Origin: Escherichia coli
Lineage (GTDB): Bacteria > Pseudomonadota > Gammaproteobacteria > Enterobacterales > Enterobacteriaceae
Reading direction: 5' to 3' (one strand)
NCBI RefSeq assembly: GCF_003334765.1
Contig: NZ_QOWT01000002.1
DNA length: 64,000 bases
A program made the position numbers and the translations under genes. Under the pieces are notes generated by a model, which had not been told where the DNA came from, made no database searches, and saw only the letters and a list, made by a program, of their open reading frames with translations. Each line of letters begins with the position of its first letter. The stretch's first letter is position 1. Positions 44,488 through 52,009 of the stretch are shown piece by piece.

Positions 44488-44503
44488 CTCTGCTTATTAT
44501 TAA

Positions 44504-44527
44504 AAACAGGGCGAAACTTGCCCTGTT
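44504..44527. terminator. hairpin after rbn
   Basis: acagggc-gaaactt-gccctgt inverted repeat flanked by A-run upstream; orientation of termination uncertain. Confidence 0.4.
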
Positions 44528-44674
44528 ATCGCAACCCGCGCTACATATATCCACCCACACAGGCATATTGAGCGATTTTTGATATTTATTCATCTCCTTA
44601 CGCACTATATTCAGAGCAATAAGTTGCCTCTTTTCATCTTGATTCAGCACAACCTTTGCAACTAAAAGGAGCCC

Positions 44675-45886
44675 ATGATGGTTACAGTTGTCAGCAATTA
44701 TTGTCAATTATCTCAAACGCAACTCAGTCAGACATTTGCAGAAAAATTTACTGTGACCGAGGAATTACTGCAGTCTTTAAAAAAAACAGCGTTATCCGGA
44801 GATGAAGAAAGCATTGAGTTACTGCATAATATTGCGTTAGGTTATGATAAATTTGGGAAAGAAGCTGAAGATATTCTTTACCATATTGTTAGAACCCCAA
44901 CAAATGAGACCCTATCGATTATCCGACTTATCAAAAATGCTTGTTTAAAATTATATAATCTGGCACATATCGCAACCAACTCCCCCCTCAAATCACATGA
45001 TTCAGATGATCTCCTGTTCAAAAAACTATTCTCCCCTTCGAAATTAATGACAATTATCGGTGATGAAATTCCTCTTATATCTGAAAAACAGTCGCTTTCA
45101 AAGGTGCTTTTAAATGATGAGAATAATGAACTGAGTGATGGTACAAACTTCTGGGATAAAAATCGTCAATTAACCACAGATGAAATAGCTTGCTATCTTC
45201 AGAAGATCGCCGCTAATGCAAAAAATACTCAAGTCAATTATCCTACTGGTCTCTACGTCCCCTACTCCACCAGAACTCACCTGGAAGACGCTCTCAATGA
45301 AAATATTAAGAGCGATCCATCATGGCCGAATGAAGTCCAGTTATTCCCCATAAATACTGGCGGACACTGGATATTAGTTTCGCTACAGAAAATAGTAAAT
45401 AAAAAAAATAATAAACTACAAATAAAATGCGTCATATTCAACTCATTGCGTGCACTAGGCTATGATAAAGAAAATTCACTTAAGCGTGTCATTAATAGTT
45501 TTAATTCTGAACTCATGGGAGAAATGTCGAATAATAATATAAAAGTTCATTTAAATGAACCAGAGATAATATTTTTACATGCCGATCTTCAGCAATACTT
45601 AAGCCAAAGTTGCGGTGCATTTGTGTGCATGGCAGCCCAGGAAGTGATTGAACAAAGGGAAAGCAATTCTGACAGCGCCCCCTATACGTTATTAAAAAAC
45701 TATGCTGACAGATTTAAAAAATATTCAGCAGAAGAGCAGTACGAAATTGATTTTCAACATCGACTGGCAAACAGAAATTGTTATTTAGATAAATATGGCG
45801 ATGCAAATATCAATCATTATTATAGAAACTTAGAAATAAAACACTCACAACCCAAAAATAGAGCATCCGGCAAAAGAGTGAGTTAA
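44675..45886 (+). CDS. elaD: CE-clan cysteine protease, deubiquitinase-like (403 aa)
   Basis: Track ORF 44675..45886; matches ElaD (..[12 protein letters not shown].. His region, ..[13 protein letters not shown].. catalytic Cys region); gene is visibly AT-rich. Confidence 0.88.
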
Positions 45887-45903
45887 CATCATTGTTAATT
45901 AAT

Positions 45904-45935
45904 TCGACCAGTCAGCAAATATGCTGACTGGTCGA
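45904..45935. terminator. perfect 13-bp-stem palindrome between convergent elaD and yfbK (probable bidirectional terminator)
   Basis: tcgaccagtcagc-aaatat-gctgactggtcga. Confidence 0.6.
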
Positions 45936-45956
45936 ACATAGTTTGCTAAACAGTCA

Positions 45957-50388: not shown

Positions 50389-50596
50389 GTCAAACCCCTT
50401 TAAATATTTATGATATTAAATATAACAACGTCTGGATAACGACCCGGCCTGACTGAATATCTCACGTTTTCCTGCTTAACATTCATGTTATGATGCTCTT
50501 GAAACTAATAATACGTATGGAATTGTCACTATTTATCTGCTAATGAATTCAAACAATGTCATTCGTTTGATGAATATATTATTTCAGGGAATAATT

Positions 50597-51019
50597 ATGA
50601 CACCTTTAGAACGCATTACCCAACTTGTTAATATCAATGGTGATGTTAATAATCCTGATACTCCTCGTCCATTGTTATCTCTTGAGGATTTTTTTATTGA
50701 CAATAATATCCATGGTTCAATATGTTGCAATGTGATTCCAGAACAATCTCCGCAAGCTATCTATCACCATTTTCTGAAAATACGTGAGCGTAACAATGTT
50801 AGTGATGTTTTGGTAGAAATTACGATGTTCGATGACCCAGACTGGCCCTTTAGTGAAAGTATTTTAGTTATCACCACTGCTTCACCAGAAGAAGTTCAGA
50901 GCTGGTTTGTAGAAGAAATTGCCCCTGATGAGTGCTGGGAAGGATGGTCAGAAGATACGGAGCATGGATGGGTTGAAGTCCCTGTGGGTATGCATCCGGT
51001 TACTTGTTGGTGGGATTAA
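50597..51019 (+). CDS. yfbO: uncharacterised protein (140 aa; track ORF allows a 158-aa form)
   Basis: Track ORF 50543..51019; start set at ATG 50597 (MTPLERITQ...), which has a weak AGGGA SD; the upstream ATG lacks one. Confidence 0.75.
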   Translation: MTPLERITQLVNINGDVNNPDTPRPLLSLEDFFIDNNIHGSICCNVIPEQSPQAIYHHFLKIRERNNVSDVLVEITMFDDPDWPFSESILVITTASPEEVQSWFVEEIAPDECWEGWSEDTEHGWVEVPVGMHPVTCWWD

Positions 51020-51077
51020 AACATTTATATAAACAGATAAGCGGATGTTTACATAAATTTTTATGTGAAGGAACATG

Positions 51078-51926
51078 ATGAAACTTATTCCTCGCAGTAG
51101 TGATATTTCACCTGGCATTGATGGAATTTGCCCGGGGCCTTTTCCTCCGAACGGATTTACCGTACTTACAGATGCAGCATATGGTAACGGAGACTGTTTC
51201 GGTTTGTACTGGCCTATTGGTCAGGAGCATAAACTACCTATAGTGTGCGAAACGTACCATGACGAATGGCGAATCGTACCTGCCTTTTCCAGCATTAAGA
51301 AGTTCGAAGAATGGCTGGAAGTGAATGATGATGATCCCCATGAAAATGGCATCAGCATCGAAGATCAAGACTTTGCAGCAAATCTCTTCCGTGTTGCTCG
51401 GAAATGTCTTTCAACGGGAAGGCTTGATGACGCACTGCCACTGTTACAGCGAGCAACAGAACAATTGCCTGAAGTCAGCGAATATTGGTTAGCACTGGCA
51501 ATCCAGTATCGCCGATGTAAAAAAACAGAAGCTGCAGCACAGGCTGCGCTTAATGCTTATCTTGGCAATTGGGCATTTGGTGTTCCTGACAATAAAGTCA
51601 TTCATTTGCTGTCACAGGCCGCAGATGTCCCGAATTTCCAGGATGATCCTGTGATTCAGTGCATTAAAGAACAAGGATTAGATCTTAGCTTTGGAGGAAC
51701 AAAGGAAAATAATAATTACCCCTTGATGCAGATGTGTGTTGATACTTATTTTGCGCAGAGAAAACCGCTTCAGGCATTAACCCTGTTACATAATTATGCC
51801 TGGATAATGTCCAGTGAAACGACTGCATTTCAGGAACGCTATGATTTTAATATCGATGAATGGCGGGCAAAATTCAGGCAGTTATGTTTAGAGTATTTTG
51901 GCGATAGTCGTACACAGTTCACTTAA
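51078..51926 (+). CDS. yfbP: uncharacterised helical-repeat (TPR-like) protein (282 aa)
   Basis: Track ORF 51075..51926 (tandem ATG ATG start, GAAGGA SD). Confidence 0.8.
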   Translation: MKLIPRSSDISPGIDGICPGPFPPNGFTVLTDAAYGNGDCFGLYWPIGQEHKLPIVCETYHDEWRIVPAFSSIKKFEEWLEVNDDDPHENGISIEDQDFAANLFRVARKCLSTGRLDDALPLLQRATEQLPEVSEYWLALAIQYRRCKKTEAAAQAALNAYLGNWAFGVPDNKVIHLLSQAADVPNFQDDPVIQCIKEQGLDLSFGGTKENNNYPLMQMCVDTYFAQRKPLQALTLLHNYAWIMSSETTAFQERYDFNIDEWRAKFRQLCLEYFGDSRTQFT

Positions 51927-51959
51927 CGCTCTGCGTCTATCTACTATCCCTTCTTTTTC

Positions 51960-51990
51960 AGAAAAACCGCCGAGCATGTCGGCGGCTTTC
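51960..51990 (-). terminator. rho-independent terminator of the nuo operon (after nuoN)
   Basis: Minus strand reads stem ccgccga-catgc-tcggcgg followed by TTTTTCTGAAAAAG; 20-25 bp downstream of the nuoN stop. Confidence 0.8.
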
Positions 51991-52009
51991 TGACTTACAA
52001 AGTAACAGA

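Follow-up and report, generated by a model that had tools for sequence, protein, structure and literature searches.

ElaD of Escherichia coli is a characterised deubiquitinase (PMC1847702), whose gene has been found in most strains of the species and is absent from phylogroup B2 (PMC12575377). Polyimmunity proteins carry domains in tandem copies (PMC3482391), and DMP19, a DUF4375 protein of Neisseria, is a DNA mimic (PMC3384305, PMC5722371). These systems, together with the plasticity hotspots of the E. coli chromosome, are the described counterparts to which we compare the AT-rich block of genes, elaD to yfbP, which separates rbn from nuoN at positions 44,488 to 52,009 of the 64,000-nucleotide stretch of E. 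coli DNA analysed here (the window; contig NZ_QOWT01000002.1, assembly GCF_003334765.1). An original prediction, made from the letters alone, regarded the block as horizontally acquired, and as the likely seat of an uncharacterised functional module. We conclude with high confidence that the block is no single island or module, but a mosaic whose units are inherited independently, at a site that has long been variable. The locus is already annotated, and is an ordinary variable locus; the functional mystery remaining in it concerns yfbN, yfbO and yfbP only. A mosaic history dominated by losses is in our opinion the best explanation of the data, and a probable one; the view that these three genes encode inhibitors, which we join to it, is much more tentative.

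Gene content of the locus in E. coli

The region 43,500-52,600 is 100% identical to K-12-type E. coli chromosomes in RefSeq. Names, order and orientation of the genes (rbn, elaD, yfbK, yfbL, yfbM, yfbN, yfbO, yfbP, nuoN) have been confirmed by the RefSeq annotation, and the mixed orientation originally read from the DNA agrees with the annotated strands. The genes, and the units to which they have been assigned, are listed below.

44675..45886, plus strand: elaD, CE-clan cysteine protease (deubiquitinase), unit 1 (NCBIfam NF008812)
45957..47684, minus strand: yfbK, predicted vWA-domain lipoprotein, unit 2a (NCBIfam; Pfam on relatives)
47822..48793, plus strand: yfbL, M28-family metallopeptidase, unit 2b (RefSeq annotation; Pfam on relatives)
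48896..49399, plus strand: yfbM, DUF1877 protein, unit 3 (Pfam; PDB 1RYL)
49400..51961, no strand assigned: yfbN-yfbO-yfbP segment (yfbN-O-P) of 2.56 kb, unit 4 (junction alignment)
49672..50388, minus strand: yfbN, all-helical protein of 238 residues
50597..51019, plus strand: yfbO, very acidic alpha+beta protein of 140 residues
51078..51926, plus strand: yfbP, protein of 282 residues with an acidic N-domain and a TPR region

At least four units are inherited independently, namely elaD, the divergent yfbK-yfbL pair, either member of which has been lost separately, yfbM, and yfbN-O-P. A survey was carried out on 5,426 complete E. coli genomes, a gene being counted as present when at least 80% of its length was found. 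The locus was found in all the genomes, at least 80% of the block in only 932. elaD is present in 4,187 genomes (77%, in agreement with the published distribution), yfbK in 2,514 (46%), yfbL in 3,293 (61%; many others retain about 66% of the gene as a remnant), yfbM in 5,356 (98.7%), and the yfbN-O-P segment in 946 (17%). The segment has a match of any length in 1,016 genomes, and in 988 at 99% identity or more, hence a prevalence of about 17-19%; 81% of the genomes lack any match to it, and all of them keep nuo. yfbM is effectively a core gene of E. coli, and evolves as one. The block is therefore not kept or lost as a whole, and its genes vary largely independently of each other. The functional module proposed at the outset is not borne out, given independent inheritance and the near-core status of yfbM, for which the ratio of nonsynonymous to synonymous substitution rates (dN/dS) is 0.04-0.07.

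Annotated E. coli genomes provide at least five distinct indel variants. In one yfbN-O-P is absent and elaD is frameshifted, in a second both elaD and yfbN-O-P are absent; yfbK is deleted in a third, and in a fourth, exemplified by O157:H7, its deletion is accompanied by truncation of yfbL; in a fifth elaD and yfbK are both deleted. The inspected variants carry nothing beyond the K-12 gene set, insertion sequence (IS) elements excepted, and are therefore nested subsets of it, K-12 having the fullest gene set among the E. coli variants inspected. The yfbN-O-P indel begins immediately past the stop codon of yfbM and ends shortly ahead of the nuo terminator, and junction alignment shows that 17-18 nt take the place of the segment in strains lacking it. 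Co-occurrence of yfbN, yfbO and yfbP with elaD, which had been thought a suitable check, holds in one direction only. Nearly all yfbN-O-P carriers have all of the block (932 whole-block genomes vs 946 carriers), but most elaD carriers lack yfbN-O-P, about one fifth of them having it. One-way co-occurrence of this kind reflects nestedness inside a lineage; it does not amount to linkage of the genes as a module.

A second yfbN-yfbO allele, 79-89% identical, circulates in E. coli. Diversity within the species would have arisen mainly by differential deletion, and by allele replacement via recombination in the conserved flanks, and not through a single recent insertion. IS elements have been identified inside the block in several strains (IS66-like ISCro1, IS1B in yfbK, ISEcB1), and IS903B and an IS3 element lie within the yfbN-O-P segment of some strains. 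An IS200/IS605 tnpA gene is found between yfbM and nuoN in one locus (L004:5981-6439). One of the 5,443 places matching the block region is a plasmid record, not a chromosome.

The rbn-nuoN site in other taxa

The rbn-nuoN site is an old hotspot, common to several enterobacterial genera. Relatives of the block genes have been identified between rbn and nuoN in E. fergusonii, in a cryptic Escherichia clade, in Superficieibacter and in other enterobacteria, and the combinations differ. The order is rbn, cheW-receiver fusion, yfbK, yfbM, a 191-residue ORFan, yfbN, nuoN in E. fergusonii, and rbn, cheW-receiver fusion, yfbK, yfbL, yfbP (62% identity), yfbN (47%), nuoN in Superficieibacter. Three further enterobacterial contigs carry, respectively, yfbK, yfbL, two ORFans of 85 and 173 residues, yfbN and nuoN; yfbN alone between rbn and nuoN; and yfbK, yfbL and yfbO (69%). 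In Escherichia sp. E2748 nuoN is followed by an unrelated 409-residue ORFan, which takes the position of yfbP, and then by yfbO, yfbN, yfbM and yfbL. In each of five other loci inspected a yfbN relative comes straight after nuoN; this is the case, with both genes on one strand, for E. fergusonii, for Superficieibacter and for two more enterobacterial contigs. The gene beside yfbN is exchanged for unrelated ORFans in sister taxa. The elaD slot, between rbn and yfbK, holds a CheV-like CheW-receiver fusion of 327-333 residues in E. fergusonii, Superficieibacter and another enterobacterium (L012:3882-4883, L017:11984-12967, L019:12772-13773). Therefore, the elaD slot also takes alternative cargo.

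Across taxa, amino acid identity is 93-99.8% for NuoN, 45-71% for YfbN, and 66-70% for YfbK and YfbL. dN/dS values are 0.21-0.33 for yfbN and yfbO, and below 0.01 for nuoN; selection on yfbN and yfbO is purifying, though relaxed. Intact yfbN, yfbO and yfbP reading frames have been kept across genera at 45-70% identity. The site would have been occupied for long by variable, fast-evolving genes, a view drawn from these comparisons and not from a tree. Horizontal acquisition, as first supposed, fits the atypical composition of the block and its partly accessory nature; prevalence, partial variants and the subsets found in other genera do not fit one acquisition.

rbn itself (43570-44487) is unusually diverged. 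The K-12 and E. fergusonii (L017:13033-13947) products are 84% identical, with a synonymous divergence (dS) of about 2.2, and nuoN, 8 kb away, is 99.8% identical in the same comparison (dS 0.16). Pfam matches on rbn relatives include the anti-Pycsar Apyc1 family (PF23023).

Base composition

G+C content, 0.51-0.59 in the men/ela/rbn and nuo flanks, drops to 0.35-0.48 over 44,500-52,000. The block averages 0.416 (41.6%) vs 0.526 (52.6%) in the remainder of the window, and the 7.5-kb interval starting at 44,501 has the lowest G+C content in the 64 kb. Thirty-two long open reading frames (ORFs) outside the block served as reference for the G+C content at third codon positions (GC3), which is 0.59 +/- 0.06. 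Block genes deviate from it with z-scores of -2.0 to -4.7, and fall into two compositional classes. elaD (0.31), yfbN (0.36), yfbO (0.31) and yfbP (0.37) make up the lowest (z <= -3.7), and yfbK (0.47), yfbL (0.43) and yfbM (0.45) are intermediate (z -2.0 to -2.6). The codon-adaptation index follows the same pattern. The sharp change in base composition after rbn, and the distance of elaD, yfbN, yfbO and yfbP from the flanking genes, had both been noticed by eye, and are recovered in windowed G+C and in codon usage, which both deviate from those of the flanking genes. AT-richness would reflect the persistence of foreign, or fast-evolving, genes.

No housekeeping genes lie within the block, which does contain the least characterised genes of the neighbourhood. 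The claim that it mostly encodes proteins of unknown function is half true, and does not hold for ElaD, which is characterised, for YfbM, the structure of which has been solved, and for YfbK and YfbL, which belong to clear families.

Hairpins, repeats and mobility signatures

Three hairpins deserve attention at or within the block.

44507..44525, plus strand: short G+C-rich hairpin (CAGGGC-GAAACTT-GCCCTG) after the rbn stop codon, read from the sequence
45903..45936, no strand assigned: inverted repeat with a perfect stem of 15-16 bp, in the interval separating the convergent genes elaD and yfbK, found by folding
51958..51993, no strand assigned: hairpin 3' of both nuoN and yfbP, with core stem CCGCCGA/TCGGCGG at 51,967-51,985, found by folding

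The G+C drop starts at the first hairpin, which is likely to terminate rbn transcription and to mark the AT-rich stretch on its left side. The second (-27.3 and -29.1 kcal/mol, z -8.7 and -9.4) is probably a bidirectional terminator. The third (-20.6 and -22.1 kcal/mol, z about -5) is kept in strains lacking yfbN-O-P (E3, 3-72, O157), and is therefore part of the conserved nuoN 3' end, a probable terminator of the nuo operon, not an island edge. Of the notion that the block is bounded by strong hairpins, existence and strength of the second and third hairpins can be retained, but the former is internal and the latter belongs to nuoN. A promoter and terminator scan yielded counts no higher than expected from shuffled sequences, and missed both strong hairpins, which were therefore folded directly.

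No mobility ORF is found in the block, as had been remarked, and flanking repeats and tRNA genes were not found either. Repeat search detected only short pairs, probably due to chance, and no direct repeats occur at the yfbN-O-P junctions or flank the elaD indel. Rfam models, those for tRNAs included (ARAGORN was not run), gave no RNA family at E<=0.1 over 43,500-52,500. Non-coding RNAs and repeats have thus been discarded as block boundaries. A 24-nt imperfect inverted repeat, 79% complementary (44448-44471 and 45973-45996), brackets elaD. Its arms sit within the two genes rbn and yfbK, at their 3' ends, and the C-terminal peptides specified there (ELAND and ELADG) resemble each other; the repeat is probably a product of chance.

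The better-known genes

ElaD matches the ElaD/SseL family NF008812 over residues 4-371 with 455.7 bits, the cut-off being 250. The gene is absent, frameshifted or truncated in some strains. ElaD is a known deubiquitinase, directed at eukaryotic hosts. A functional link of ElaD to the UBA-like YfbN was considered and rejected, since elaD is missing from E. fergusonii, which does have yfbN, and the majority of elaD carriers are devoid of yfbN.

YfbK has NCBIfam matches to vWA-type and lipoprotein signal regions, and its relatives carry Pfam vWF_A, VWA and YfbK_C domains; the gene is deleted in O157:H7 and other strains, and is syntenic in other genera. YfbL, encoded by a gene divergent from yfbK, has an N-terminal hydrophobic segment, and Pfam Peptidase_M28 is found on its relatives. 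YfbK and YfbL would probably act in the cell envelope. YfbM is a DUF1877 protein (Pfam PF08974, E 3e-35), matches PDB 1RYL chain A ('hypothetical protein yfbM') over residues 1-167 of 167 (E 8e-109), and is 97% identical in E. fergusonii.

Products of yfbN, yfbO and yfbP

YfbO has an isoelectric point (pI) of 4.1 and a net charge of -21 over 140 residues, and is the founding member of Pfam PF27222. Since its homologues also have 140 residues, the start codon is set at 50,597, and use of an in-frame ATG further upstream, at 50,543, is improbable. yfbO and yfbN are divergently oriented. Members of the YfbO family, 28-55% identical, are scattered among Planctomycetota, Beta- and Gammaproteobacteria, sphingomonads, Actinomycetota, Myxococcota and Bacteroidota. 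YfbO relatives lie beside toxin genes in two of about 31 loci, in two unrelated bacteria, the others having no toxin among their top Pfam families. In the first (L007) a gene for an LHH toxin, at 5635-6783, is followed by two SUKH genes and by the YfbO relative, and Tox-REase-5 and Imm52 genes are nearby. In the second (L055) a YfbO-like domain ends the ORF directly following a PT-HINT toxin gene, at 3391-4782, in an array of PT-HINT cassettes. A conserved partner was not found: of the 109 neighbours from 29 loci compared with Pfam, no family occurs more than twice, both PT-HINT matches coming from one locus, and in an all-against-all BLAST comparison the neighbours were connected between closely related taxa only. 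The large ORFs upstream of yfbO relatives were considered as candidate toxins, and rejected, as they encode histidine kinases, HisS and an MMPL transporter.

The AlphaFold2 model of YfbN is all-helical (pLDDT 91.7). The predicted architecture consists of two UBA-like three-helix domains (residues ~1-90), followed by an acidic helical domain (~93-225) resembling DMP19/DUF4375. The three-helix UBA fold of the N-terminal half and the DMP19 fold of the C-domain are both features of the predicted structure. Foldseek found a DUF4375 protein, and identity to DMP19 in the structural alignment is 12%; YfbN has no Pfam match to DMP19, which was not recovered in a profile search of PDB sequences either. 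The C-domain has a pI of 4.78 and a net charge of -13, a figure referring to bulk charge only. Full-length YfbN relatives are found in the AlphaFold database (AFDB) in Leminorella and several Bacteroidota. The most distant YfbN-like protein placed in a genomic context (39% identity) is encoded at the end of a same-strand array of twelve small ORFs (L060:2-8103), mostly devoid of family assignment, the exceptions being a NUDIX protein, an alpha/beta hydrolase, and a weak match to DUF1801. Two public records, a 2.8-kb contig labelled 'MAG: Bacillota bacterium' (L023, JAEWTL010000023.1) encoding a YfbO 100% identical to that of E. coli, and a UniProt YfbN fragment of 'Streptomyces antimycoticus' (AFDB A0ABD5JR91), also 100% identical, look like E. 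coli contamination.

yfbP lies 58 bp 3' of yfbO, on the same strand. Residues 1-95 of its product form a conserved acidic N-terminal domain (pI 4.4) with the motif GNGDxFGLYWP...HDEW; residues 97-168 match Pfam TPR_16/TPR_14, within a helical TPR-containing region. Clustered at 50% identity, the N-domain family yields 150 or more clusters, and TPR repeats accompany the domain in nearly all cases. The domain also occurs in tandem, in 9 copies in a protein of 1,523 residues (P0230), and 6 in one of 1,153 residues (P0243). Assignment of the N-domain to the SUKH family, hinted at by the motif (GNGD...HDEW...F..WL), has marginal support at best: SUKH_6 matches at E<=0.1 are limited to 4 of 100 relatives, the best being 1.1e-3, and hhalign against a three-sequence SUKH profile gave a probability of 0.8%. 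A YfbP relative resides, as said, at the same locus in Superficieibacter. A YfbP-like protein of 219 residues devoid of the N-domain, 47% identical to residues 99-282, is encoded at 8001-8660 in three loci (L014, L015, L016), and the gene has an ars operon and a Rep3-type gene for replication as neighbours; the contigs, some 230-250 kb long, look like large plasmids of Providencia-type Enterobacterales. In Leminorella grimontii a YfbP relative (65%) is found in another context (L011:3806-7761 and 8894-16721), beside a three-gene operon encoding, among others, a DUF6384 protein, and is followed by a series of ORFs unassigned to any family. AFDB also contains a YfbN-like protein (38%) of L. grimontii, which falls outside the 16.8 kb examined.

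Literature on yfbN, yfbO, yfbP and DUF1877 is restricted to screen-level mentions. Keio mutants in yfbO and yfbL are reported to be specifically resistant to phage N4, with sensitivity restored by complementation (preprint 10.1101/2025.09.29.679331). In a preprint overexpression screen for blockers of RcaT, the toxin of retron-Sen2, yfbO was advanced solely through its linkage to yfbN, and yfbN is therefore implied to have scored as a RcaT blocker. Both leads come from single preprints, are screen-level, and were obtained with Keio and ASKA strains.

What yfbN, yfbO and yfbP may be for

yfbN, yfbO and yfbP are real genes under selection, as indicated by the dN/dS values of yfbN and yfbO, by invariant motifs and by confident AlphaFold2 models. 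It may tentatively be suggested that their products are acidic cytoplasmic inhibitors, akin to orphan immunity or DNA-mimic proteins. YfbO, the C-domain of YfbN and the N-domain of YfbP would bind and neutralise basic, nucleic acid-directed proteins. Their targets would be found among toxins, incoming polymorphic nuclease toxins included, or among DNA-binding proteins. The three would be orphan immunity-like, or DNA-mimic-like, genes kept in the absence of a cognate toxin. Two toxin-locus contexts of YfbO relatives, folds, the swapping of genes near nuoN, and the acidity of the three (pI 4.1 for YfbO, 4.8 for the YfbN C-domain, 4.4 for the YfbP N-domain) are on the side of the inhibitor idea; binding and neutralisation might conceivably follow from them. 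The scatter of the YfbO family across phyla, the tandem copies of the YfbP N-domain and the implied blocking of RcaT by yfbN count in its favour as well.

More doubtful is a further step, according to which yfbN, yfbO, yfbP and the ORFans replacing them by nuoN would make up a small cassette slot of orphan inhibitor genes, acting as pre-emptive toxin neutralisers. If so, targets would include toxin arms of defence systems, such as the retron toxin RcaT, and YfbO (PF27222), the YfbP N-domain and the UBA-UBA-DMP19-like YfbN would be added as three new immunity or anti-toxin families. Toxin neutralisation by the three proteins would also help explain retron-toxin blocking and the phage N4 hints.

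Several points weigh against the picture drawn here, either in its historical or in its functional part. The set of complete genomes is rich in laboratory K-12 derivatives, so that both the 17% figure and the apparent co-occurrence are inflated. The history rests on summary counts and six annotated variants, and because no phylogeny was built, gain and loss have been told apart only from nestedness and outgroups. The E. coli locus is devoid of toxin genes. Neither YfbN nor YfbO matches an Imm or SUKH family in Pfam, the SUKH_6 match of the YfbP N-domain is only marginal, and no Imm-family match is on record for the L060 array hosting the distant YfbN-like gene. YfbO relatives are mostly solitary, reside beside housekeeping genes and have no common neighbour. 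Finally, yfbN keeps a vertical synteny with nuoN and points in the direction opposite to yfbO, unlike the genes of immunity arrays, typically all on one strand.

A relation to phages is an unlikely alternative to the inhibitor idea. yfbN, yfbO and yfbP, perhaps with yfbL, would form a small anti-phage system, or encode host factors exploited by phages. This would accommodate the complemented N4 resistance of the yfbO and yfbL mutants, the implied blocking of the retron toxin by yfbN, a property otherwise enriched in prophage genes according to the preprint, and the variability and AT-richness of the genes, as in defence islands. However, PADLOC gave no match at E<=0.1 for any of the seven block proteins, none of which is thus taken for a defence system; homologues of YfbN or YfbO are missing from 50,697 phage genomes, and a phage origin has been rejected on these grounds; Pfam scans of YfbN, YfbO and YfbP revealed no enzymatic or NTPase effector domains. 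In addition, the N4 phenotype runs counter to defence, resistance being conferred by loss of the gene, and the phenotypes come from the single preprints mentioned above.

It is equally improbable that yfbN, yfbO and yfbP are functionless remnants of old transfers, silenced and drifting to loss, and that the block is decaying DNA. The segment has been lost without replacement in most E. coli genomes, codon usage is poor, several strains have IS insertions, and signs of decay can be seen in yfbL, yfbK and elaD of some lineages. Decay is at odds with reading frames intact across genera at 45-70% identity and dN/dS of 0.2-0.33, with invariant motifs and confident folds, with the wide diffusion of the YfbO and YfbP N-domain families, and with the overexpression and deletion phenotypes reported.

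The position of yfbN, directly 3' of nuoN and on the same strand in other enterobacteria, and sole gene between rbn and nuoN in one, along with purifying selection, may evoke an accessory or regulator of nuo (NADH dehydrogenase I), co-transcribed or co-regulated with nuoN in most species, yfbO and yfbP being later insertions by which the two were parted in K-12. This is quite unlikely, considering that a terminator-like hairpin follows nuoN, that nuo is kept in all the genomes, 81% of the total, having no yfbN-O-P match, that YfbN evolves far faster than NuoN (45-71% vs 93-99.8% identity), and that the soluble, UBA-like and DMP19-like YfbN resembles no Complex I subunit or assembly factor among fold matches.

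Lastly, the hypothesis that elaD to yfbP were acquired horizontally as one island, now without its mobility genes, and cooperate as a module accounts for the uniformly low G+C content relative to the flanks, the close numbers of whole-block genomes and yfbN-O-P carriers (932 vs 946) and the lack of housekeeping genes, but is very improbable, and largely refuted by gene prevalence ranging from 17% to 98.7%, two GC3 classes (0.31-0.37 and 0.43-0.47), the core-like behaviour of yfbM, subsets held at the same site by other genera, mixed orientations with an internal terminator, and flanking repeats and tRNA not being found.

A mosaic, then, should not be handled as a module in deletion or co-occurrence studies. 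As a block the locus is of little importance, being an annotated stretch of the best-studied bacterial genome, with function and distribution of elaD already published. What is gained are testable leads for three K-12 genes, namely the link of YfbO to toxin loci, the UBA-like and DMP19-like domains of YfbN, and the repeatable N-domain of YfbP; should the three proteins turn out to be toxin-neutralising, new immunity families would be added.

Comparison with known systems

Like the plasticity hotspots of the E. coli chromosome, the rbn-nuoN locus is fixed between core genes, has a variable content and an atypical composition, and is devoid of mobility machinery, occasional IS insertions aside. 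Unlike them, it is small (0.1-7.5 kb), the E. coli variants inspected are nested subsets and not alternative cargoes, and yfbM is effectively core. The elaD gene of the window is the same as those of the ElaD/SseL deubiquitinases in family match and strain distribution, and nothing differs for elaD itself; elaD does not co-vary with the other block genes.

The C-domain of YfbN is acidic and helical, as DMP19 of Neisseria is. DMP19 lacks UBA-like domains, and YfbN adds two of them at the N-terminus; no counterpart of DMP19 partners such as NHTF or HU is known for YfbN. The orphan immunity and polyimmunity loci of polymorphic toxin systems, described by Zhang, de Souza, Anantharaman, Iyer and Aravind in 2012 (PMC3482391), differ in that the E. 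coli locus has three genes only, one of which faces the opposite way, and no local toxin gene. In both cases the products are small, acidic and unrelated to each other, and content varies between close relatives, the yfbO family being patchy across phyla. yfbO and yfbP, 58 bp apart on the same strand, recall in part the arrangement of polyimmunity loci, from which yfbN, on the other strand, departs, and the N-domain of YfbP, repeated 6-9 times in some proteins, recalls the tandem domains of polyimmunity proteins.

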